Shown piece by piece: positions 1 to 12,995 of a DNA stretch of 64,000 nucleotides. The notes under the pieces are model-generated. The model did not search any database and was not told where the DNA came from. It worked only from the letters and a program-made list of their open reading frames with translations. Source of the stretch: Ostreococcus lucimarinus (lineage: Eukaryota); the NCBI GenBank assembly GCA_000092065.1, contig CP000600.1; one strand, 5' to 3'. How positions within the stretch are numbered: position 1 is the stretch's first letter; every line of letters starts with the position of its first letter. A program made the position numbers and the translations under genes.

Positions 1-49
1 CGACGAGACTTCTTGCTCGAAGAGTGAGATTTGGCAAATCGTCTTCGAG

Positions 50-1015
50 ATGACCTTCGTCGTCGCCACGATTCGCGCGTCGATCGAACTCATGAAGTGG
101 GCCCCGACGGGCGGGTCAGGGGCGGGGACGATTTCACTCGTTTCCGTGATTGGGTTCGGCATCGCGGCGTGCTGCGTGTACGTCGCCGCGGGAAGCTGGG
201 ATGACAAGTGCGGTCCGAGAAGTAGCGAGCGCTACCGTCGCGCCAAGACGTCGAGCGTCGAAGAGCGCGCGGGGTTACTGTCGTCTACGACGGCGGCGGC
301 GACGTTGGCGCCGCCTCGACGGATCAATATGTCTCTCTCATCGAAGTCGCGACGCACGAAAGCGAGCGACATGTACGGTACGAGTACTGTCCCCGCGTTT
401 GACGTGGAAAGTGGGAAACGAACGCCCGAGGCGTTTAGCGTCGGCGACGAGGACGACGTCCAACCCGTCAGCCTCGACGTCCCGGCGTTGACGAACGCGA
501 AGGAGATGCAAAAGGCTATCAAAAAGTACAAAAACATGCGAGATCACAATTTCGATCTCGAGAACTTTAGTGAGTACGCGCAGAGCGATGCGACGAGCGT
601 GATGTCGGAAAATCACGCGCCGTCGCACGTCAACTTTGGATCGCACGCGCCGTCGCACGAAGATTTCGGCAGCGAAATCGGCAGCGCGTTCGGCGACGGC
701 GACGACGACGAAAGGTCGGTAGACATGGACGGCAAGGATCGCGCCGCGCTGGCGCACGCCATGCAAGCGCAGCACGACTCGCAACAGCGCGCCAAATCGC
801 TTCGCATGGCGAATTTGCGCGTCAACACCGCGCCCGCGCCGAATCCCAAACGGTCGCGACCGCCGAGGTCGCCGCGCAGCTCCAACGCGACGTCCGCGGA
901 CAATTCGCCGCGCGCGCCGCTCTCACCCCCGACCGCGGAATCACCCAAACCCATCAGCGCGTCCGATTGGGTCGATTCCCCGATCGTCGTCGACGCGTCG
1001 TCGACGCCTCGATGA
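50..1015 (+). CDS. hypothetical membrane protein (N-terminal hydrophobic segment, internal NHAPSH-VNFGS/EDFGS duplicate)
   Basis: 321-aa ORF with non-biased composition in its first two-thirds; a TM-like stretch GTISLVSVIGFGIAACCVYVAAG near the N-terminus; no family recognised; may extend upstream of the window. Confidence 0.35.
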   Translation: MTFVVATIRASIELMKWAPTGGSGAGTISLVSVIGFGIAACCVYVAAGSWDDKCGPRSSERYRRAKTSSVEERAGLLSSTTAAATLAPPRRINMSLSSKSRRTKASDMYGTSTVPAFDVESGKRTPEAFSVGDEDDVQPVSLDVPALTNAKEMQKAIKKYKNMRDHNFDLENFSEYAQSDATSVMSENHAPSHVNFGSHAPSHEDFGSEIGSAFGDGDDDERSVDMDGKDRAALAHAMQAQHDSQQRAKSLRMANLRVNTAPAPNPKRSRPPRSPRSSNATSADNSPRAPLSPPTAESPKPISASDWVDSPIVVDASSTPR

Positions 1016-1519
1016 CGCCTCGACGACGAAGCCCGTCTCGCGTCGCGTCGCGTCGCGTCCGCGTCTACAGCGCGCGTTGATTATTTTACACCCAGTCTAC
1101 GCTACCCCGTCGCGCCGTCCCCCACCGTCGTCTCGCCCGCCGGAGTCCCCTTTCCCAACCTTCGCGCGCGTTCAAAGTGCAGCGCGCGAAGCATCGCGTT
1201 CACCTCGGCGTACGCGCCCGCGCGCGCCTCGTCCTCGTCCTCGTCCTCGCGCGCGCGTCCCGTGTGCATGCGCTTCACCGCGCGCTGCAGTTCGAGCACC
1301 TCCTCGCCGTCGCTCGCGCTCGGTCGCGCGCGCGTCGCGCGCGTCGTCGTCATCGGTCGGCGCGTCGTCGCTCTCGGGCGGTATCGACGGCGCGCGGACG
1401 CGCGACGCGCGCGAGACCGACTCGGACGCGCGCGCGCGATCGCGGCGCGCGCGACGCCGCGCCGCGCGGTCGAATCGCGCGCGCGAACGGCGCGCCGTCG
1501 CCACTCTACGGCGCGCCGA

Positions 1520-1952
1520 AATGAAACCGAAACCGAAAGATTCGCCCAAGAAGCGCCATCAGCGACCGAAGAGCGGCACGGGCGCGGCCAAGCGCGACAA
1601 ACGCGGCGTCGCGCGACACAAGAGCGCGACGACGGCGTTCGGCGAGGCGACGTTCGACGACGCGAAGCGTAAAGATTGGGTCACCGGGTACCGCAAGCGC
1701 AAGGTTGGACGACGAAAGCAAGCGCAGCACGACGCCGAGCAGCGCGCGCGACGCGAGCGAATCGCGGCGAGGAAGGCGCGGAGGGACGCGGAGCGCGTCG
1801 CGCTCGGTTTGGTGGACGACGAGGGCGAACGCGCGGCGAATGGGGTCGGGGACGCGGTCGAGCGGGACGACGCGGACGTCGACGCGGCGTACGCGAGCGG
1901 CGTCACGGTGACCGTGCGCGCGGGATCAGGCGCGAGCGACGATGGATTTTGA
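1520..1952 (+). CDS. small Lys/Arg-rich basic protein, possibly a nucleolar or ribosome-biogenesis factor
   Basis: The 3' part of ORF 1077..1952 starting at ATG 1520 (MKPKPKDSPKKRHQRPK...KDWVTGYRKRK...) has protein-like composition; the 5' part of that ORF is RP/RA low-complexity typical of GC frame artifacts. Confidence 0.35.
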
Positions 1953-2189
1953 TTTGTATTTTTTGTATCTCTGTATCTTTGCCTCGAGCGCGCGTTTCGA
2001 TTCGTTTCGCGCGCGTCGGCGTCGGCGCGCGGCAGAGCGCGACTCGCGGCGGCGGCGATGCGCGGTCGGTCGGTTCGACGCGCGCTCGCGCTCGCGCTCG
2101 CGTGCGGCTTGGGTGCGTGACGTAGGGCGCTCGTCGCGACGCGTCGCGGCGGCTCGACGACGGCGCGCGCGCGCGCGGAGGGAACGATC

Positions 2190-3644
2190 GTGGGGAACGC
2201 GCGCGTCGAGCGAATGCGCGTCGACGCGCGCGAGAGCGGCGAAACGCGACGGCGCGATATCGGACTGACGGCGCGCGAACGCTACCTGTCGAACGCAGCG
2301 ATGGCGCGCGACGCGGAGGGGGCGCGACGCGCGAGCGTGAACGCCTCGGGCGTGTTCAACACCAACGGCTTGCGGTGTCCCGAAGACGTCGAGTGCGAGC
2401 GGTGCGCGGCGCCGCTGAACGCGGCGCCGTTCCGCGCGCCGGTGAACCTGACGGGAGTGCGAGTGATCGGGTGTCGATACCGCGCGGACGTGTGCGACGC
2501 GCTGCGCGAGGAGTCGAAGGCGTGCAAGAGACACGCGCGGTCGCTGTGCGGCGAACAGGACACGCGAGCGCAGGCGAAGACGAAATGTAAACGCGAAATG
2601 AATCGAGCGTGGAAGACGCGGTGCAAGGAAGAACGGACGATGATGGTGTCGCGCGCGGATGGGGCGCTGAAACGGTTCTTGGAAGTGCTGGAAAAGTTGA
2701 AAAGGGCGCGAGCGAAGCGCGCGGCGGGAGGCGCCGGGGACGACTTGACGATGTTAGAGATGGAGCTTTCGCGCTTGAAGACGTCGATCGGGCACGCGTT
2801 CGAGGAGCTGAGAAGTAATCACGGAGGCGTCGCGGTGGGATTGATGTCGGATCGAATGGAAGCGTTCGTGCGCGGGCCGACGCTGTTGGATTCGACGAGC
2901 GATATGTTGGACGTCGTCAACGCCATGAACGCCGTCTTGGGCGAGCTTCAAGGTTTGAGCACCGAAGCGAAAAGCTTGTGCTCGTACGACGCGAACATGG
3001 ACACGTCGGATGGTAAAATTTTGTGCCAAGACATGGAAGAAAAGATGAAGCTTTCGGAGAAGCGCGTCAACCGCTGCGCCGCGCGCCTGAGCGATTATTT
3101 AGCGTCGACGGCGAAAATCGACGCCCTCATCGTAGAGAAGAAGCGTCGGTTCGCGCTTTTGGATTCGCTCGACAAGTTCACCGATTCAATCTCTGGCGCT
3201 TGGTCCGCGGTGCAGTACGAAGGCGACGACGACTTTGTCGAAGAGCCGTCGACGCGCTTCAATCTCACCGAACACGTCACCACGGGCATCGTGCACACGC
3301 TCATGAACCACTACACCACTGTCAGCGCCCGCCACGCGCTCGCCACCGCCGAAATCAAAGAATCCGCGCTTTGCGCGCACATCATTCCAAGATTTCAGCT
3401 CTCTCTCCTCGGCACCGGCTTCAAGCGCGGCGACCTCGCGTGTCCGCCGCCCCACGGCACCTTCATCGCCGGTCGCGAGCTCCCGGACTGGTCCGCCTAC
3501 TTTTTATTCCTCCTCGGCATCGCCGTCGGCGCCGGCGCCACGATCGCCACCAATCGCGCCAACGAAGCCGTGGATTTCGTGCGCACGAATTCCTCCGTCG
3601 TCGTCGCCGTCTTGGTCGTCGTCTTGGCCGGTCGCTTCTTTTAG
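2190..3644 (+). CDS. hypothetical Cys-rich, coiled-coil protein with a C-terminal transmembrane anchor
   Basis: 484-aa ORF; N-terminal Cys cluster (CPEDVECERCAAP...GCRY...C); central heptad-like region; C-terminal hydrophobic segments (YFLFLLGIAVGAGATIA, VVVAVLVVVLAG). Confidence 0.4.
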   Translation: MGNARVERMRVDARESGETRRRDIGLTARERYLSNAAMARDAEGARRASVNASGVFNTNGLRCPEDVECERCAAPLNAAPFRAPVNLTGVRVIGCRYRADVCDALREESKACKRHARSLCGEQDTRAQAKTKCKREMNRAWKTRCKEERTMMVSRADGALKRFLEVLEKLKRARAKRAAGGAGDDLTMLEMELSRLKTSIGHAFEELRSNHGGVAVGLMSDRMEAFVRGPTLLDSTSDMLDVVNAMNAVLGELQGLSTEAKSLCSYDANMDTSDGKILCQDMEEKMKLSEKRVNRCAARLSDYLASTAKIDALIVEKKRRFALLDSLDKFTDSISGAWSAVQYEGDDDFVEEPSTRFNLTEHVTTGIVHTLMNHYTTVSARHALATAEIKESALCAHIIPRFQLSLLGTGFKRGDLACPPPHGTFIAGRELPDWSAYFLFLLGIAVGAGATIATNRANEAVDFVRTNSSVVVAVLVVVLAGRFF

Positions 3645-3721
3645 TCGCGCTCGGCCGAGTCCGACTCCAACCGCCGCGCGCGCGTTTGTAACACTACCGC
3701 GCCACCACACGCCGACTCGCC

Positions 3722-4774
3722 ATGTCGCGCTCGCTCGCGACGCGCGAAGTGACGCGCGCCATCGCGCTCGCCCGCGCGTGCGCGCGCGACGCCCGCGCGC
3801 GCGTGAAAATTGCCGGCGGCGCGCGCGCTTCGGGACAAAAGTGCACTTTTTCTCGCCTCGGAAAACACCGGCTCGCGCCCGCGTCGACCGTCGCCGCGCG
3901 CGGCGGCGCGACGCGCGCGACGAACGATGATCTCGCGCGCCTGCACGCGCCGTCTCTTCACCGGTTCTACGTGGACGCGGACTTTGCGCGCGGCGCCGCG
4001 GTGACGCTCTCGCGCGAGGAGACGCGACACGCCACCAAGGCGCTTCGGTTGAAACCGGGCGATCGTTTGGAAGTGTGCGACGGTCGAGGGACGCTCGGCA
4101 TCGCGAGGCTGTGCGCCGTGGACGGCGTGGGGGCGACGGTGGAGGTGGAGGAGATGGTGGCGGACGCGCTCGGGAGCGGGACGGCTTGGGACGTCGCGAG
4201 CGCGTTCGGCGGATTAAAGGGCGGACGAGGGGACTGGTTGGTCGAAAAGTGCGCGGAACTCGGCGCGCGCACGCTCGTACCGTTGTTGACGACGCGATCG
4301 GGGGCGATCGGGGGTGGGGATAGGGACGGGGATAAGAAGCGGTCGGGGAATCGACGCGCGAGCGGCGGCGACGACGACGGCTCGACGGCGAGCGGGCGCG
4401 AGGGTCGGTGGGGGCGCGTCGCGCACGCGGCGAGTAAACAAAGCTTGCGCGTGTACGGCTTACAGGTTGCGCCGCCGATCGGTGTCGAGGCGCTTTGCGA
4501 AGAAATCGCGAAAGATTGTGGCGAGCGGTTGACGTTGCTCGCGGCGGCGGGCGCGCCGCCCATCGCCGACGTCGCGCGCGCTTCGGGACTAGACTTGCGC
4601 TCGGGACGGATCGTCATCGGGCCCGAGGGAGATTTTACGGACGAAGAGTTGAAGGCGATGATCGCGGCGGGCGCACGGCCGGTTGGTTTAGGGTCGTTGC
4701 GTTTACGCGTGGAGACGGCGGCAATTTCCGCGCTCGCCGCCGTGTCGGCGCTCGCAGAGGAAAAAGGTGCGTGA
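3722..4774 (+). CDS. RsmE-like 16S rRNA (uridine-N3)-methyltransferase (SPOUT family) with an N-terminal organellar-type extension
   Basis: Motifs: HRFYVD...LSREETRHATKALRLKPGDRLEVCDGRG (PUA-like N-domain), EKCAELGARTLVPL, IVIGPEGDFTDEELKAMIAAGARPVGLGSLRLRVETAAISALA (SPOUT knot region). Confidence 0.7.
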   Translation: MSRSLATREVTRAIALARACARDARARVKIAGGARASGQKCTFSRLGKHRLAPASTVAARGGATRATNDDLARLHAPSLHRFYVDADFARGAAVTLSREETRHATKALRLKPGDRLEVCDGRGTLGIARLCAVDGVGATVEVEEMVADALGSGTAWDVASAFGGLKGGRGDWLVEKCAELGARTLVPLLTTRSGAIGGGDRDGDKKRSGNRRASGGDDDGSTASGREGRWGRVAHAASKQSLRVYGLQVAPPIGVEALCEEIAKDCGERLTLLAAAGAPPIADVARASGLDLRSGRIVIGPEGDFTDEELKAMIAAGARPVGLGSLRLRVETAAISALAAVSALAEEKGA

Positions 4775-4830
4775 AGCAGCTCTCGCTTGAATATAATATT
4801 GTACACTGGAGTTTCATTCTAAATCATCAT

Positions 4831-6459
4831 CTAATCGCACTTGATCGCTCGGTAAATGTGACGCACGAAGAGCAGGCTCGCCTTGTGCCCGACGGTGCCG
4901 AGCAACAAAAACCAACCGTAACAAATAATGGCCATGTATCCGAAGTAGTACGTGCTCTGCAAAAAGCCCGTCATGTCGCTTCGCAAATGATAATAATAGA
5001 ACGCGTAACCGAAGATCGCGATCGCGGTACTGCCACCGCACAGCACCGAACGCCACCACCATTCGTGGTCTTCCGCGGTGAGCTGAAAGTACGTCAGCGA
5101 AATCGTCATAAACGCCGTGACGAGGATGAGAATGACGAAGACGACGAAGAGTACGCTATAAATCGTGTACACCTTGTGTCCCCAAACCGAAGCGAAAATG
5201 TAGAACAACTCGATGTAAATAGCGCTGAATGGCAAGAAGCTCGCGATGCACATCTGCGGAATCGTCGCGCGGTACCATGGCAGCGCTGGGATGTCGCGCG
5301 GATACTTCGTTGTTCGCACCGGCGCGTTGAACTCTGCCTTGGCGTTTTTACCGGCTATGCCTCCGACGATGGTGAGAGGAATGGTGACGATGGCCCAAAG
5401 CAAGACGATGAGTACGATGGTACCGAAAGGTAACGCCGCCGTGCTCCTGTACGCGATGGCGACGGTGTTCAAAAACGAGAACAACACGCCGAGCGGGCCG
5501 CAAAACAAGACGCACGTCAACAGCACGTTTCGCACCCAGTTTTCACCACCCATTTGTCTGTACGTATTCGCCGAGACGTAGCCTGCGATGCCTGCGGTGA
5601 GCGAGTACATGATCAAACATGCCGCGGTGACTGCACCCATGCTGTACGGGTAAAACGCGCCAACGAGGGCCAACATGAAGACGAAGATGACGAGAAAGAA
5701 GAGTTGCGTTCCAGTGCCTATTATGGCGGCGAACAGCGACCTGCCCCGCGGGAATCGGAACACATCGCCGTGCACATACTTCCAACCGGACTCTTCTTGA
5801 GACTCCAACATTTCTTCGTCTCGCGCAAACTTGACAAAGTCATTCTTCAACACTCTCAACAAAATTGACGCTAAGAAGCCCATCATCAAAATAACCGTCA
5901 CGCACGAGTTGATGATGCTAAACCAATGAATCTCCAGGTGCTCGGGTAAGAAAGAATACCGCGAGTACTTATCCATTCTATCCTTAAACGCCGTCGTCGT
6001 CGGTTTCCAATGCACGCTATAAGAAAACCGCATCGACATCGCCTCGTCCGCCGTGATATCTACCGTCTTCAATGGATCCGTACTCAAGTTGATCTCAATC
6101 ACTCGATCTTCGTTGTACGAAATCTCAAAGTGCACGTGCGTGAACAAGAAATACCTGTTCTCTGCCGCCGCCCCCCCGCGCATGATCTTCTCCACTTTCC
6201 CGATGAAGCCCCAAATCGGCAAGTCGTCGAACGACATTTGAAAGTAGTAGTCATTCTTCACCGCCCGGCGAAACTTCTCCACCTCTTTCCGCTCTAAAAA
6301 CTGCGTGCACAAGTCCACATTCTCCTTATCGATGCCAAATTCTATCTCATAAGGAGACTTGGCGAGCCTATCCCCACCCAGTACTTCACCCAAATCCGTT
6401 CGCTCGCGCTTGACGCCTTCGGGCGAGCGACAAAACGGGAAATCGTAATACTGATATGT
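4831..6459 (-). CDS. TM9SF: transmembrane 9 superfamily (nonaspanin, EMP70) protein, exon 2
   Basis: ORF 4831..6558 from TYQYYDFPFC onward is a canonical TM9SF body (9 TM helices, KNDFVKFARDEE...); the exon starts at the CAG acceptor immediately before ACA TAT CAG (TYQ). Confidence 0.9.
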   Translation of the reverse strand, partial: TYQYYDFPFCRSPEGVKRERTDLGEVLGGDRLAKSPYEIEFGIDKENVDLCTQFLERKEVEKFRRAVKNDYYFQMSFDDLPIWGFIGKVEKIMRGGAAAENRYFLFTHVHFEISYNEDRVIEINLSTDPLKTVDITADEAMSMRFSYSVHWKPTTTAFKDRMDKYSRYSFLPEHLEIHWFSIINSCVTVILMMGFLASILLRVLKNDFVKFARDEEMLESQEESGWKYVHGDVFRFPRGRSLFAAIIGTGTQLFFLVIFVFMLALVGAFYPYSMGAVTAACLIMYSLTAGIAGYVSANTYRQMGGENWVRNVLLTCVLFCGPLGVLFSFLNTVAIAYRSTAALPFGTIVLIVLLWAIVTIPLTIVGGIAGKNAKAEFNAPVRTTKYPRDIPALPWYRATIPQMCIASFLPFSAIYIELFYIFASVWGHKVYTIYSVLFVVFVILILVTAFMTISLTYFQLTAEDHEWWWRSVLCGGSTAIAIFGYAFYYYHLRSDMTGFLQSTYYFGYMAIICYGWFLLLGTVGHKASLLFVRHIYRAIKCD

Positions 6460-6653
6460 CTGCGCGAACGAGCCGGGCGCGACGAGCGAATTCGAGTCAG
6501 TCTTAACGTTCGCATCCGCATCTCCCTCGACGCGCGTTCGCGCGCATTCACAAGACATTTCGACCGCGTCGTCGCGTTTGGATTAATCAATTCGCCGCGC
6601 GCGCGCGTTCGATTTTTCCACTACGACGTCGACGCGCGAAACCGCGCACGCAC
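6460..6653 (-). other. intron of TM9SF gene (GTGCGT...CGCGCAG), about 194 nt
   Basis: Exon 1 (frame of ORF 6621..6905) and exon 2 (frame of ORF 4831..6558) are in different frames. Splicing GAG|GTGCGT ... CAG|ACA joins ...FANKVGPFHNPSE to TYQYYDFPFC, which reconstitutes the conserved TM9SF N-terminus. Confidence 0.75.
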
Positions 6654-6899
6654 CTCACTCGGATTGTGAAAAGGTCCAACCTTGTTCGCGAACAGCGCGA
6701 TGTCGTCGCCGCGATCGTATTTCGAGCCCGCGAGGAGCGAACGACCGATGGAGTTCGAAGTCGATCCTCGTTGAAGATCTTCCGCGCGCGCGCTCGACGC
6801 GCGCGTACACAGCACCGCACACGACGCGAGCACCACACACGACTCGAGGAACGCGCGTTTACGCGTTGGACGCGCGCGGGGGCGAGTTCGCGCGGTCAT
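6654..6899 (-). CDS. TM9SF: TM9SF exon 1: signal peptide plus start of luminal domain
   Basis: MTARTRPRARPTRKRAFLESCVVLASCAVLCTRASSARA|EDL...: n-region, hydrophobic core and AxA cleavage site; the exon-2 ORF alone lacks a signal peptide. Confidence 0.75.
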
Positions 6900-7010
6900 G
6901 ACCACCGCTCGCGCGTGGGTGTGTGCGGCGCGGCGCGGCGAGCGCGGCGGTTGGACCGCGAGCGGTTTCTCGTTTCGTTCATTTCACGGCGTCGGTTTAT
7001 CTAAGGTTAG

Positions 7011-9026
7011 CTAGACGATTCGCTGGACGCTACCAAATTGTCCGCGAGCTTTTGCAAGCGCGGCAGTGTACGCCTCGTTCGCCGTCTTCCAATCGCTCTT
7101 GTACTTGGCTTTGCGTTCTGGATCGAGCGAGGCCCACCGCTCGCCGAGCGCCTTGCCGACTTCGCGGAAGTTAAAGGTTGGATTTTCCGCCTTGACTGAC
7201 GGGCGTTCGTCCGTCGCGAACGCTAAGAAGGCAGTGAGCGGCTTTTTCATTCCTGGAACTTCCACCTTGGGTTCCGGCGCCTTCTTTGCCTTTGGATCTT
7301 TAGCTTCCTTCTTCGCCTCTGGCTCCTTCGAGCATCGATCTGCACACCGCTGTGAGGCAGTGCTGAGATCTCGCGCCGCCGAGAGCGCTTCGCTGAGATC
7401 GTGCGCCAAGTCGACTTTGATTTTTTCAACCAAGTTTTCGACCGATTTGTCCGTCAACTCGCGGCTTTCCTTGAGCGTACGATTTTCGGTTTCGAGAAGC
7501 TTGACGTTGAGACGCTCTTGTAGAAGTTTCTTTTTCGTGGCTTCGAGTTGCTTCAATGTCTCAACTCTGAACGTCTCATTCGTTGCTCGGGCTGCGATGA
7601 AAGCGGCGCGGTATCGAGTCGCCTCTAGTTGGAATGCTTTAGGACATCCAGTATTCGGTTCAGAGTTGCGCTTTTCCGACCGTAAACTACACTGTTCGAT
7701 GTCTTCATTGGCGTCGCGGAGCTTGTTCATCAACACGGCAATCGTTTCATCCTTCGCGCTCAAACACTTGTTTCGTAGAGCGAGCTCAGTCGTAGATGCC
7801 TGGAGTTCACTTTGCGTGCGCTCTAATGCCATCTTTAGCGACGGGATTTCTCTCATTTTCCGCGCCGCATCGACTCTAAACTCCTCCACTTCCCTCCTGA
7901 GTTGCTCGGACGTGGATTTGAGTGACTTGGACATTTCAGAAATTGATTTGTTCTCCACAGTCAAGCGCTTCACCTCGTCTCGCAGCTCGGCGTCTGAGCA
8001 CGATGCGAGCTCCTTTTGCAACTCGGCGATTTTCGACTTCAGTTGCACATTTTCAGTCTCGGCAGAGGAGAGTAACTCCACATCGTAGTTGAGCTTTTCA
8101 TTCTCGCCTTCTAAAGACGTCTTCTCCGCATCCAATTTTTCATATCGTTCGAGTGCGTCAACCAAATGACGTTGCAACGAGTCGCAACGTCGTTTCAACT
8201 CGTCGCGGTCGGTTAAAAACGATTTTTTCTCTTCATTAAGCACCACGCACGCGCCATTGTGCGAATGCACGTTCTCCGTCTCCGCTTGAATACGATTGTA
8301 ATCCTCGCGCAGGCGCTCCACGTTTTTCCGCAGGGCTGAGATTTGCGCCTCGTACTCGCGCTCTTCGCCATTCGCACGCATCTTCGCGATCGCCTCGGTC
8401 TCCTCTCGCGCAGCTTTCTCCTTGCGAATTTCCGCGCGTAACTGCTGATTGACCGTGCGCAGATGCGCAATCTCTGACGCCCGCGCGTCGGACTCTTTTC
8501 GAATCGCCTCGATACGAGATGGAAGCGCCTGAAAGTCTTCGCGAGAAAAGGCGGTGGGCTCGGATTCGAACGGTGGCGGCAGCGGCGGCGGCGGCGGCGG
8601 CGAAACACCCCGCGGCGTCTCAAGAGCCTCCACATTCACCATCTGCTCCGTCCTAGCTTTCTTCGATCGCGACGCCGTATCGACGTTCTCGACGAGACCA
8701 GTCTCCTTCGACGTCGTCCGATGCGTCGCCGACGTCTCGCCCTCGACTCCTCCGCGCGATCGCGCGTTAATATTTGGTGACGGGTACCCGCGCGTCGACG
8801 CCGCCGCGGCGACGCGCGTGACGTCGCCCCTCCCATGCGGACTCGCGTCGTCGCGCCGAGGCCGAGGCCGCGGCGCGGCGCTCTGCTTCTGTGTCTGTGC
8901 GTCTCGTTCCGCTCGTTTCGTCGTCGTGAGGGCAGGCGCTTCGCACCGGTCGCACGGGTCAGTGGGTTTACGCGTCGGCGCGATGAACAGCCCCCAACGC
9001 GCGGGCTTTGACTTTTTACGCGGCAT
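7011..9026 (-). CDS. coiled-coil protein with a C-terminal HMG box
   Basis: About 450 aa of heptad-rich sequence (LRAEIRKEKAAREE..., LEGENEKLNYDVELL...) followed by a canonical HMG box (KKPLTAFLAFATDERPSVKAENP...ALGERWASLDPERKAKYKSDWKTANEAY). Confidence 0.7.
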   Translation of the reverse strand: MPRKKSKPARWGLFIAPTRKPTDPCDRCEAPALTTTKRAERDAQTQKQSAAPRPRPRRDDASPHGRGDVTRVAAAASTRGYPSPNINARSRGGVEGETSATHRTTSKETGLVENVDTASRSKKARTEQMVNVEALETPRGVSPPPPPPLPPPFESEPTAFSREDFQALPSRIEAIRKESDARASEIAHLRTVNQQLRAEIRKEKAAREETEAIAKMRANGEEREYEAQISALRKNVERLREDYNRIQAETENVHSHNGACVVLNEEKKSFLTDRDELKRRCDSLQRHLVDALERYEKLDAEKTSLEGENEKLNYDVELLSSAETENVQLKSKIAELQKELASCSDAELRDEVKRLTVENKSISEMSKSLKSTSEQLRREVEEFRVDAARKMREIPSLKMALERTQSELQASTTELALRNKCLSAKDETIAVLMNKLRDANEDIEQCSLRSEKRNSEPNTGCPKAFQLEATRYRAAFIAARATNETFRVETLKQLEATKKKLLQERLNVKLLETENRTLKESRELTDKSVENLVEKIKVDLAHDLSEALSAARDLSTASQRCADRCSKEPEAKKEAKDPKAKKAPEPKVEVPGMKKPLTAFLAFATDERPSVKAENPTFNFREVGKALGERWASLDPERKAKYKSDWKTANEAYTAALAKARGQFGSVQRIV

Positions 9027-9079
9027 GGTTTGAAGTGCGGTTTGACCGCGACGCGACTGCGACTGCGACGCGCGCGCGT

Positions 9080-9985
9080 TTACAAGCCGAGTTCTATGGC
9101 TAAGGCGGTCTTGACTTTTTTCACCGCCTTCGCGGGCGGCGCGTTCGTTAACGCGGTCGGCGGCGGCGCGGGCGCGGACTTCTTCGCGTCGTCGTCGTCG
9201 TCGTCGTCGCTCTCGGTGAGTTTAATTTTCGCCGTGCGCTGGGTGTGCAAGGTGTCCTTGGTCAACGGCGGCGGCGCGAAAAATCCAAACGTCGCCGCTT
9301 TCGCCGGTTCCGCGCTCGTCGACGGCGCCGCGGTGGGAAACGAAAATAACCCCGCCGGTTTCGTCTTCTCAGCCTTCGCCTCGCGCGCGTCGTCGTCGTC
9401 ATCCGCCTCGACGGGCGCGCCGCTCAGCCGCGAAAACACGCTCGATCGACCGGCGTCCGCGTCCTCCCTCTTCGCCCCACCCGTGAGCGCCGCGAACCCT
9501 GCGAACGCGTTCGACGTCGTCTTACCACCGTCCCCGGTTCCACCCAACGGCGATTGTCCCGGTCGCTTCGCCTTGACCACCTTTCGCCTCCCGCCCGACG
9601 AGCTCGCCGGCGACTCGCTCGCCTCCCCCGGCTTCCTCCTCGCCACGTACTCCCGCCCCTGATCCTCGAACGCCCGTCGCTCCCGCTCCCGATCCTTCGC
9701 CTCTTCGATCTCTCGCTTCGCCCGCTGCGCCTCCACCTGCGCTTTCGCCTGTTCGATCATCGCGTTCACGTCGTCCGACGGCGTCGCCGCGCTCGCCGCG
9801 AACGGATTCGCGCCCTCGGGCGCCGGCGGCGCCTTCGCCGCGCGTCCGAAGTAATTCCCCGTCGCCTCGTCGACGTCCGCGTCTTCCTCGTCGTCGTCCT
9901 CTTCGTCGCGCGCGTCGTCGCGCGCGTCGTCGACCTGCGCGTTCAAACCGACGCCGTCAGTCCAATCGCGCATCGCATCGCGCAT
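9080..9985 (-). CDS. hypothetical acidic protein with scattered FG/F-x-F motifs (possibly nucleoporin-like)
   Basis: 301-aa ORF with varied composition ([25 protein letters not shown]), poly-Asp tracts and motifs [35 protein letters not shown]; the plus-strand ORFs covering the same bases are low-complexity. Confidence 0.4.
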
Positions 9986-10157
9986 CGTCCGCGTGCGTCG
10001 TCTCGAAGCGCGCGTTCGCGCCCGCGCGCCGCGATCGCGCGCACCTCATCCTCCGTCGCGCGCGCGTCCTCGCCGTCGCTCTCGTTCGACATCGCGCGCG
10101 CCGCGATCTGCGGCGAACGCGTCGCGATCGATGCGTCATTCGACGACGCGCGAATCC

Positions 10158-12995
10158 ATGTCGAACCAAGCGTCGCGCGCGCTTCGCGCGCCGGTGGCGC
10201 CGTTCGGCGACGCGCCCGCGCCCGCGGGTTACGTCCCGGGACTCGGTCGCGGCGCCGCGGGGTTCACGACGCGGAGCGACATCGGGCCGGGACAGGTCGC
10301 GGCGGCGGGGGACAAGGTGCGGGAACGAAACGACGACGACGACGCGACGACGCGACGACGCGACGACGCGACGGAGGCGCGATGCGATGGACGCGCGCGC
10401 GGATGATGCCGGCGAACGACTGACGAGGACGGCGCGCGCGAGTAGGAGCGAGACGAGGACGGCGGGAGAAGCGGCGACGGCGGCGAAGACGGATTGTTCG
10501 GCCGGGACGCGTCGACGTACGACGACGACGACGCGGAGGCGGATGAGATATGGGCGCAGATCGATGAGAGGATGGACTCGAGGCGGAGGGACGCGCGAGA
10601 GCGGCGGGAGAGGGAACAGATGGAAAAGTTTAGGGATGAGAATCCGAAAATCGTGGAGACGTTTCGCGACTTGAAGCGCGGGCTGAAGGACGTGTCGTAC
10701 GCGGAGTGGGACGCGATTCCGGATATCGGGGACTACACGATCAAGAAGAAAAAACTGAACGTGGGGTTCATGCCCGCGCCCGATACGCTGCTGGCCAAGG
10801 CGTTGGCGGAGAAGGAGACGGTGAACACGGCGGCGGACGCGGGCGGCGAGCAAGACTTGACGGCGGTGGGCGAAGGTCGAGGGACGGTTTTGGGGTTGAA
10901 GCTCGACCGATTAAGCGATAGCGTCACGGGTCAAACGACGATCGATCCGAAGGGGTACTTGACCGATTTAGGCTCGCAGAAGATCACGAGCGCGGCGGAG
11001 ATTTCTGACATTAAAAAGGCGCGTTTGCTGCTCAAGAGCGTCATCAACACCAACCCCAAGCACGGCCCGGGGTGGATTGCGGCGGCGCGTTTGGAGGAAC
11101 TCGCGGGTAAATTACAACAAGCGCGAGTGTTCATGCAAAAAGGGTGCGAGGAGTGTCCGAAGAACGAAGACGTGTGGATCGAGGCGGCGCGGTTGAACAC
11201 GCCGGAGAACGCCAAGGCAATTTTAGCGCGCGGCGTGCAAACGTTGCCGAATTCGGTGAAGATTTGGATGCAAGCGGCGCAATTAGAGATTGAAGATGAG
11301 CGTAAGCGGCGCGTGTTGCGGCGAGCGTTGGAGAACGTGCCGAATTCTGTGCGATTGTGGAAGGCGCTCGTGGACTTGAGCGCCGAGGACGACGCCAAGG
11401 TGTTGCTCGCGCGCGCGACGGAATGTTGTCCGCAGCACGTCGAACTTTGGCTCGCGCTGGCGCGTTTGGAGACCACTGAGAACGGTCGTAAGGTGCTGAA
11501 CAAGGCACGCGAAACATTACCGCGCGAGCCTCAGATTTGGATCACCGCGGCGAAGCTCGAGGAGGCGAATGGGAACGAAAAAATGGTGGAGAAAATCATC
11601 GCGCGCGCGGTCAAGTCGCTCAAATCGCACGGCGTCACCATCGATCGCGAGAGTTGGATCAAAGAAGCGGAAATCGCTGAAAAAGCCGAACCACCGTCGA
11701 TTGCGACGTGTCGGGCGATCGTCAAGGCGACCATAGGCGAAGGCGTGGAGGAAGAGGACAAAAAACGCACTTGGAAGGCGGACGCGGAGGAGTGTATGAA
11801 GCGCGAGAGCGCCGAGACCGCGCGCGCGATTTATGCGCACGCGCTAGATTCAGGATTTTCGCACAAGAAGGGTTTGTGGATGAAAGCGGCGATGTTGGAA
11901 AAGCGATTCGGTACGCCTGATTCCGTCGACGCCGTCTTGCGCAAGGCGGTGACTTTTTGCCCCAACGCTGAAATCTTGTGGCTCATGGGCGCGAAAGAGC
12001 GCTGGCTCAGCGGCGACGTCACGCGAGCGCGCGAGATTTTACAATCAGCCTTCGACGCCAACCCGGACTCGGAAGAGATTTGGCTCGCGGCTTTCAAATT
12101 GGAGTTTGAAAACGGCGAAATTGATCGCGCGCGCATGTTGCTCGCCAAGGCGCGAGAACGTTTGGCCGACTGTGCGCGGGTTTGGATGAAATCTGCGCTT
12201 GTCGAGCGCGAGGCGGGTGATGAACAAGCCGAACGCAAGCTTCTCGATGAAGGCATCGAAAAGTTTCCGACGTTTTGGAAACTTTGGATGCAACTCGGGC
12301 AACTTGAACAGCGCGCCGGGGAGAAGCGCGCCGAGCAAGTCCGACACGCGTACACGCAAGGCACGAAGAAGTGCCCGAACGCGATTCCGTTATGGATTGC
12401 GCTTTCAAGTTTTGAGATGCGCAGTGGGAACGCGTCCAAGGCGAGAATCATTCTCGAAACCGCGCGCGCGAAGAATCCCTCCAACGAACACTTGTGGCTC
12501 GCCGCCGTACGTCAAGAGCGCGAGAGCGGAAACATCCAGCTCGCCGAGAGCACGATCGCGCGTGCACTGCAAGAGTGCCCAACGAGCGGTTTGCTCCTTG
12601 CCGAGTCCGTGCGATTTGCGCCTCGCCCGCAAAGGAAATCGAAATCTGTCGACGCGTTGCGGCGGTGCGACAACGATCCGTACATCATCGCCGCCATCGC
12701 CATTTTGTTCTGGGCCGACCGCAAACTCGACAAAGCCCGAAGCTGGTGGAACCGCGCGGTGACAATAGCACCCGACATTGGTGACCACTGGGCGTCGTAT
12801 TACAAATTCGAACTCCAAACCGCGGGCGAGCAAGCCGCCCAAGCCGTCGCCGAGCGTTGCGCGCGGGCCGCTCCTCGCCACGGCGAGAATTGGAGCGCGA
12901 TGCGCAAGCGCGTGGAGAACTGGCACGATCCCGTGATTGAAATTTTGAAAAAAGTTGCCGCCGGGCAAGACGAAATGGCGTACGCGACGAAATAG
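10158..12995 (+). CDS. PRP6: pre-mRNA splicing factor PRP6 (U5 snRNP 102-kDa protein, HAT/TPR repeats), with one probable short intron near the 5' end
   Basis: The N-terminus MSNQ...[30 protein letters not shown] is the PRP1_N motif. It continues in ORF 10494..12995 ([24 protein letters not shown], then about 15 HAT repeats to ...[13 protein letters not shown]). An in-frame stop at 10404 separates the two parts. Confidence 0.9.
10317..10445 (+). other. predicted intron in PRP6 (AAG|GTGCGG ... AGTAG|GAG), boundaries tentative
   Basis: Removes the in-frame stops at 10404 and 10443 and keeps the frame (both boundaries fall on codon boundaries of frame 9993). The donor resembles the TM9SF donor GTGCGT; the acceptor lacks a pyrimidine tract. 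Confidence 0.4.

Follow-up and report, generated by a model that had tools for sequence, protein, structure and literature searches.

Where does the nonaspanin (TM9SF/EMP70) protein encoded on the minus strand of this Ostreococcus lucimarinus DNA begin? The window, by which we mean the whole 64-kb stretch that was analysed, carries a 575-codon open reading frame (ORF; 6558..4831) whose N-terminus is MSCECARTRVEG. The original prediction held that this ORF lacks the signal peptide of its family, and that a 94-codon ORF just upstream supplies one through an intron running from a donor at 6653 to an acceptor at 6460. We find that a gene of two exons, with a 194-nt intron at 6653..6460, in the nuclear genome of O. 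lucimarinus or of a practically identical strain, is almost certainly the best explanation of the locus, and there is no evidence that contradicts it. The coordinates of the gene, its neighbours and its orthologous introns are listed in Table 1.

Table 1. Features of the TM9SF locus and its surroundings in the window, with the orthologous introns of related lineages.
Feature	Position	Strand	Details
5' UTR, TM9SF mRNA	6900..6991	-	about 92 nt; begins where L002 aligns after its adapter; start near 6991 approximate
Exon 1, coding part	6654..6899	-	82 codons; ATG 6899..6897; ends ...FANKVGPFHNPSE, the first conserved luminal motif
Spliceosomal GT-AG intron	6460..6653	-	194 nt, phase 0; follows ...NP(S/T)E, ends GCGCAG; missing from L001 and L002
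5' splice site	6647..6653	-	GTGCGTG; sequence reading
Branch-point motif	6495..6502	-	GACTGACT; branch A 6497, 37 nt before the last intron base
3' splice site	6460..6462	-	CAG; sequence reading and junction comparison
False N-terminus of the 575-aa ORF	6460..6558	-	MSCECARTRVEG...GSFAQ, 33 codons; wholly intronic
Exon 2, coding part	4831..6459	-	542 codons plus stop 4833..4831; entire EMP70 domain and multi-spanning membrane region
3' UTR	4772..4830	-	about 58 nt; poly(A) site near 4772-4775; poly(A) run of L002 follows 4772
RNA-methyltransferase ORF	3722..4774	+	convergent with TM9SF; PUA_4 and Methyltrans_RNA domains; stop 4772..4774
HMG-box ORF	7011..9026	-	671 aa; directly upstream of TM9SF; PF00505 HMG_box, E = 1e-14, C-terminal
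Acidic-protein gene	9080..10092	-	300 aa; candidate 16-codon exon 1 at 10092..10045
Candidate acidic-gene intron	10044..9935	-	110 nt; GTGCGCGC...GACTGACGG...GCGCAG
PRP6/PRP1-like splicing-factor gene	10158..12995	+	ATG 10158; exon 1 to 10316 (...AAAGDK); exon 2 from 10446
Candidate PRP6-like 5' intron	10317..10445	+	129 nt; GTGCGG...GACTGACG...TAG
Orthologous intron, related Ostreococcus	L003:825-1025		201 nt; 5' GTGCGCG; branch A to end 53 nt; 3' GCGCAG
Orthologous intron, O. tauri-like	L007		207 nt; 5' GTGCGTG; branch A to end 33 nt; 3' GCGCAG
Orthologous intron, O. mediterraneus-like	L008		197 nt; 5' GTGCGCG; branch A to end 45 nt; 3' GAACAG
Orthologous site, related Ostreococcus-like lineage	L004:3186-3249 (L004-L006)		no intervening sequence

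Structure and transcripts of the TM9SF gene

The 94-codon ORF (6905..6621, minus strand, a different frame from the long ORF) ends in ...GDDIALFANKVGPFHNPSE followed by VRARFRASTS and a stop, and GTGCGT, with its donor G at 6653, lies directly after the ...PSE codon. Its frame, its GDDIALFANKVGPFHNPSE end and the GTGCGT had all been described correctly, as had the MSCECARTRVEG start of the long minus-strand ORF at 4831..6558. The start given at 6905 did not hold. That position is a GTG, which was counted as a start because the ORF tool applies bacterial rules; the real ATG is at 6899. On the other side, CAG at 6462..6460 is followed by ACA TAT CAG TAT TAC GAT, which opens TYQYYDFPFC in the frame of the long ORF. 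Deletion of 6653..6460 leaves one uninterrupted frame, which starts at the first ATG (6899), runs for 624 codons and stops at 4833..4831. For an unspliced message, the in-frame TAG at 6623..6621 is the termination point. The splice also restores the N-terminal luminal motif conserved in TM9SF proteins, as had been predicted. The green-algal and plant homologues read straight through NKVGPFHNPSE-TYQYYD, and continuity over ANKVGPFHNPSE-TYQYYD/F was seen in Pyramimonas, Nephroselmis (transcriptomes), Cymbomonas, Pseudoscourfieldia and land plants.

The spliced 624-aa product was then compared with public records by exact look-up. All of its 624 residues agree with those of ABP01081.1, XP_001422764.1 and UniRef100_A4SBF1, which are named "predicted protein" (Ostreococcus lucimarinus CCE9901) and, for the UniRef entry, "Transmembrane 9 superfamily member". 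The deposited model must have this start and this junction, since splicing elsewhere would alter the protein sequence. Therefore, the public annotation already contains the intron at 6653..6460: the gene, start and intron are the same, with zero differences at the protein level.

Transcript evidence comes from two intron-less contigs that were assembled independently, L001 (run SRR28369097) and L002 (run SRR25907274). In both, the 624-aa reading frame is uninterrupted. Against the window, their alignment falls into two blocks, one ending at 6654 and the other starting at 6461, and their junction reads aatccgagtgag followed by acatatcagtat with zero intervening bases, so that exactly 6653..6460 is missing. 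The splice from 6653 to 6460 and the resulting TYQYYDFPFC thus agree with XP_001422764.1 and with both cDNA-type contigs. Split reads across 6460..6653 had been named as the check on this intron, and the two contigs in effect provide it, with the junction exactly at 6653/6460.

The first base of L002 to align, window 6991, is preceded by an Illumina adapter remnant (tcagacgtgtgctcttccgatct), and the contig ends in a poly(A) run; therefore, L002 is a full-length cDNA. We infer that L001 is also transcript-derived, solely from its absent intron. It spans neighbouring genes, and we ascribe this to transcripts that overlap, the genome being very compact. Identity between the contigs and the window is 99.9% from exon 2 onward and 98.5% in the upstream block (5' UTR and exon 1), the latter value being due to a 5-nt indel in the UTR. 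At this indel, both L001 and L002, which come from the environment or from culture, have an extra accgc/ccgca relative to the window (within 6900..6991), which is taken to be a population polymorphism. L002 also has a difference from the window immediately ahead of its poly(A), at 4774; a SNP or an error at the contig end may account for it.

The protein itself was examined with Pfam and with simple hydropathy calculations. EMP70 (PF02990) matched residues 83-581 of the spliced protein over profile positions 1-517/517 (E = 1.4e-172). Residue 83 is residue 34 of the 575-aa ORF and the first codon past the acceptor. Residues 1-33 of the 575-aa ORF are translated intron and not protein. Exon 1, in turn, encodes a leader with seven Arg/Lys in its first 15 residues, followed by the hydrophobic core CVVLASCAVLC (residues 21-31, Kyte-Doolittle 2.77). 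The original prediction called this a textbook signal peptide. The hydrophobic core after an Arg/Lys run is present as described; "textbook" is generous, and the Arg-rich N-terminal region is unusually long. In a crude hydropathy calculation, the orthologues all have a comparable N-terminal hydrophobic segment. A similarly crude 19-residue scan gave overlapping hydrophobic stretches across residues 259-606, which are compatible with about nine spans but are not separated from one another. Among named proteins, the closest relatives are TM9SF members 2/3 of the plant type (about 65% identity), and the label of the protein should read "TM9SF family" rather than "TM9SF2/4". A PDB sequence search found no related solved structure. 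The G+C content is 52% in exon 2, 63% in exon 1, 61% in the intron and 62% in the window. The low value in exon 2 may come from a membrane-protein composition rich in Phe/Ile/Tyr or from codon usage.

In the resulting course of expression, the gene is transcribed on the minus strand from near 6991, and its mRNA receives a poly(A) tail near 4772. The spliceosome removes 6653..6460 by means of GTGCGTG, the branch site GACTGACT (A 6497) and the CAG acceptor. Splicing joins the 82-codon exon, with its charged N-terminus, hydrophobic signal-peptide-like segment and start of the luminal domain, to the 542-codon EMP70 exon, and the 624-aa product is the deposited XP_001422764.1. By analogy with the rest of the family, the exon-1 leader would direct co-translational targeting and be cleaved as a signal peptide, and the protein would be expected to have an endomembrane role.

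Alternative readings of the locus

One other possible explanation does without an intron: translation would begin at the ATG at 6558, and the 575-aa ORF would encode a nonaspanin that has no signal peptide. The 94-codon ORF would then be either a small gene in its own right or an upstream ORF. Prokaryote-style gene callers do yield such models: the mis-started 575-aa form, with its 33 intron-encoded residues, is recorded from 498 contigs (P0121), and P0002 is a 99% identical copy. However, those 33 residues lie outside EMP70 and have no counterpart in any homologue, while the conserved NKVGPFHNPSE motif sits in the upstream ORF. The N-terminus of the ORF also lacks a hydrophobic core (maximum KD 0.59), which bears out the earlier statement that the long ORF has no signal peptide. 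Since cDNA contigs lack 6653..6460, and the spliced contig L002 on its own already refutes unspliced translation, this explanation is extremely improbable. The chance that an intron is present with a different donor or acceptor, such as the second GT at 6649 or the AGs at 6502, 6526 or 6451, is likewise vanishingly small. Forty-eight GT..AG pairs in the region keep a frame open, and GTGCGTGCGC contains two overlapping GTGCG donors. But when all 48 were enumerated, every alternative added or removed residues within the otherwise invariant motif, and 6653/6460 was the sole pair that kept the motif without an indel. A different donor/acceptor pair had been named as the outcome that would overturn the prediction; the pair used by both cDNA contigs and the public protein is 6653/6460. 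As an acceptor, the AG at 6502 is disfavoured by its position upstream of the branch A.

The intron-less contigs could also represent genomic DNA rather than mRNA, if intron loss has occurred in some natural variant of O. lucimarinus. A related lineage (L004-L006) is truly intron-less in genomic scaffolds of up to 48 kb, and L001 covers several genes, as a genomic contig would. The ends of L002, however, are those of a transcript, with an adapter at a plausible transcript start and a non-templated poly(A) 58 nt past the stop, and over exon 2 L001 and L002 each agree with the window at 99.9% identity. Should L001 prove genomic, L002 and the orthologues would still carry the intron reading. We therefore consider a genomic origin of the contigs very improbable, and we keep the two-exon gene as the reading of the locus.

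The intron among published introns and related lineages

The TM9SF intron was compared with the 319 EST-confirmed O. lucimarinus introns outside chromosome 2 described by Irimia and Roy (2008; PLoS Genet 4:e1000148, PMC2483917). These have the atypical 5' consensus GTGCGTG; 87% contain the branch motif ACTGAC and 66.5% its extended form GACTGACG. The 5' site of the TM9SF intron is an exact match to the consensus of this class. Its branch site matches GACTGACG at 7/8 positions and includes ACTGAC; only the last base differs, being T in place of the published G. The length of 194 nt is near the mean of 168 nt published for predicted introns of the species (median 111 nt). It has GT/AG ends, GTGCGTG and a branch motif, is absent from the mRNA and, when removed, restores the coding frame. 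The intron is therefore an ordinary U2-type intron, typical of the published non-chromosome-2 class and already known.

An Rfam scan of 6300..7100 returned two matches, both at chance level (E = 0.4-0.9), so the intron harbours neither a snoRNA nor any other known RNA. BLAST of the intron against the 64-kb window found no second copy, the matches being CG-rich low-complexity words alone. Introner elements of Micromonas (PMC4540971) are repeated intron families. The TM9SF intron resembles them in being short and in belonging to a mamiellophycean green alga; in contrast, it has no repeat copy in the window, and its position is common to four Ostreococcus lineages. The shared position points to an old, unique intron.

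The orthologous introns in L003, L007 and L008 (genomic contigs) lie at the identical codon boundary. All four introns, including that of the window, begin with GTGCG[TC], contain CTGAC 33-53 nt from the acceptor and end in CAG. Beyond these splice signals the intron interiors cannot be aligned, in contrast to the exons, whose DNA identity is 78-80%. Two known proteins help to place these contigs. The O. tauri protein XP_022841392.1 and the O. mediterraneus transcriptome protein A0A6U0EGU8 are 86-89% identical to the TM9SF protein of the window over the exon-2 region and share its junction motif. Two contigs close to them, L007 and L008 respectively, are environmental genomic sequences with the intron at the same codon boundary, and the same convergent methyltransferase neighbour is present wherever that neighbour is complete. 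In contrast, the N-terminal leaders of O. tauri and O. mediterraneus have diverged from that of O. lucimarinus, and the intron interiors share the splice signals alone.

The lineage represented by L004-L006 is different, in that TM9SF has no intron in its genomic metagenome scaffolds. The N-terminus of PRP6 is also one continuous ORF in this lineage. In a rough neighbour-joining tree of a single protein, which is weak evidence, the lineage was nested among the intron-bearing lineages, and this nesting suggests a precise loss of the TM9SF intron in L004-L006. More broadly, the intron may be old, present in at least four Ostreococcus lineages, with a recent and exact loss in the L004-L006 lineage that perhaps included the PRP6 5' intron, and with selection possibly keeping 5' introns in a minimal genome. 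We offer this broader history tentatively, as somewhat short of an even chance. If the loss did occur, the TM9SF locus would offer a modest example in nature of an intron lost recently and exactly.

Other introns, database records and neighbouring genes

Splice motifs were also counted across the window. A loose composite motif (GTGCG[TC], CTGAC, YAG) occurred at 39 sites, compared to 50 ± 11 in Markov-shuffled sequence. As this motif is not enriched, motif counting alone fails to find introns. Strict motifs were enriched about twofold, with GACTGACG occurring 10 times against 4.3 expected and GTGCGTG 26 times against 15.9 expected.

Two further candidate introns lie near gene starts in the window. 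Judged from its sequence, the PRP6-like gene seems to contain a 5' intron similar in kind to that of TM9SF. With this splice, Pfam PRP1_N is covered at 1-144/144 across the junction. The acceptor is ambiguous, with an adjacent TAG/GAG pair at 10445/10448, and an exact look-up of the 902-aa spliced product in the public collection gave no match. The original prediction had extended from TM9SF to the genome, stating that genes here carry short GTGCGT...CAG introns that an ORF-only annotation misses; the PRP6-like intron and the EST-based work (PMC2483917) agree with this. The acidic-protein gene probably has a first exon of 16 codons, in which case the first 17 codons of its 301-aa ORF would be intronic. 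Its spliced 300-aa product was not found in the public collection by exact look-up. The ATG of the acidic-protein gene is about 66 nt from that of the divergent PRP6-like gene.

The TM9SF intron shows that the window is eukaryotic and that the ORF-only track mis-starts genes in it. ORF-only calling has also left metagenome-derived protein sets with TM9SF entries that are truncated or that read through the intron. The read-through arises in L003, where the intron is in frame and stop-free. Its retention would add 67 residues with no truncation, and therefore prokaryote-style callers produced a 688-aa read-through protein (P0004), which represents a 175-member cluster in the metagenome-derived proteins. 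For genome annotation, we advise scanning near 5' ends for GTGCG[TC]...ACTGAC...YAG. The TM9SF gene model has been public since the release of the O. lucimarinus genome and the splice signals GTGCGTG/GACTGACG were described in 2008, and the lessons are methodological.

The HMG-box ORF lies between the acidic-protein gene and TM9SF, and consists of a long coiled-coil-like region with the HMG box at its C-terminus. In L003 and L004, which are syntenic, the acidic-protein gene directly neighbours TM9SF and no counterpart of this ORF was found. An exact look-up of the unspliced 671-aa sequence in the public collection also gave no match. This arrangement of genes is consistent with a lineage-specific event, and the HMG-box gene may be an insertion or have undergone a loss of that kind. 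On the opposite side of TM9SF, the 3' end of its mRNA falls at or beside the stop codon of the convergent RNA-methyltransferase ORF, leaving essentially zero intergenic DNA between the two 3' ends.
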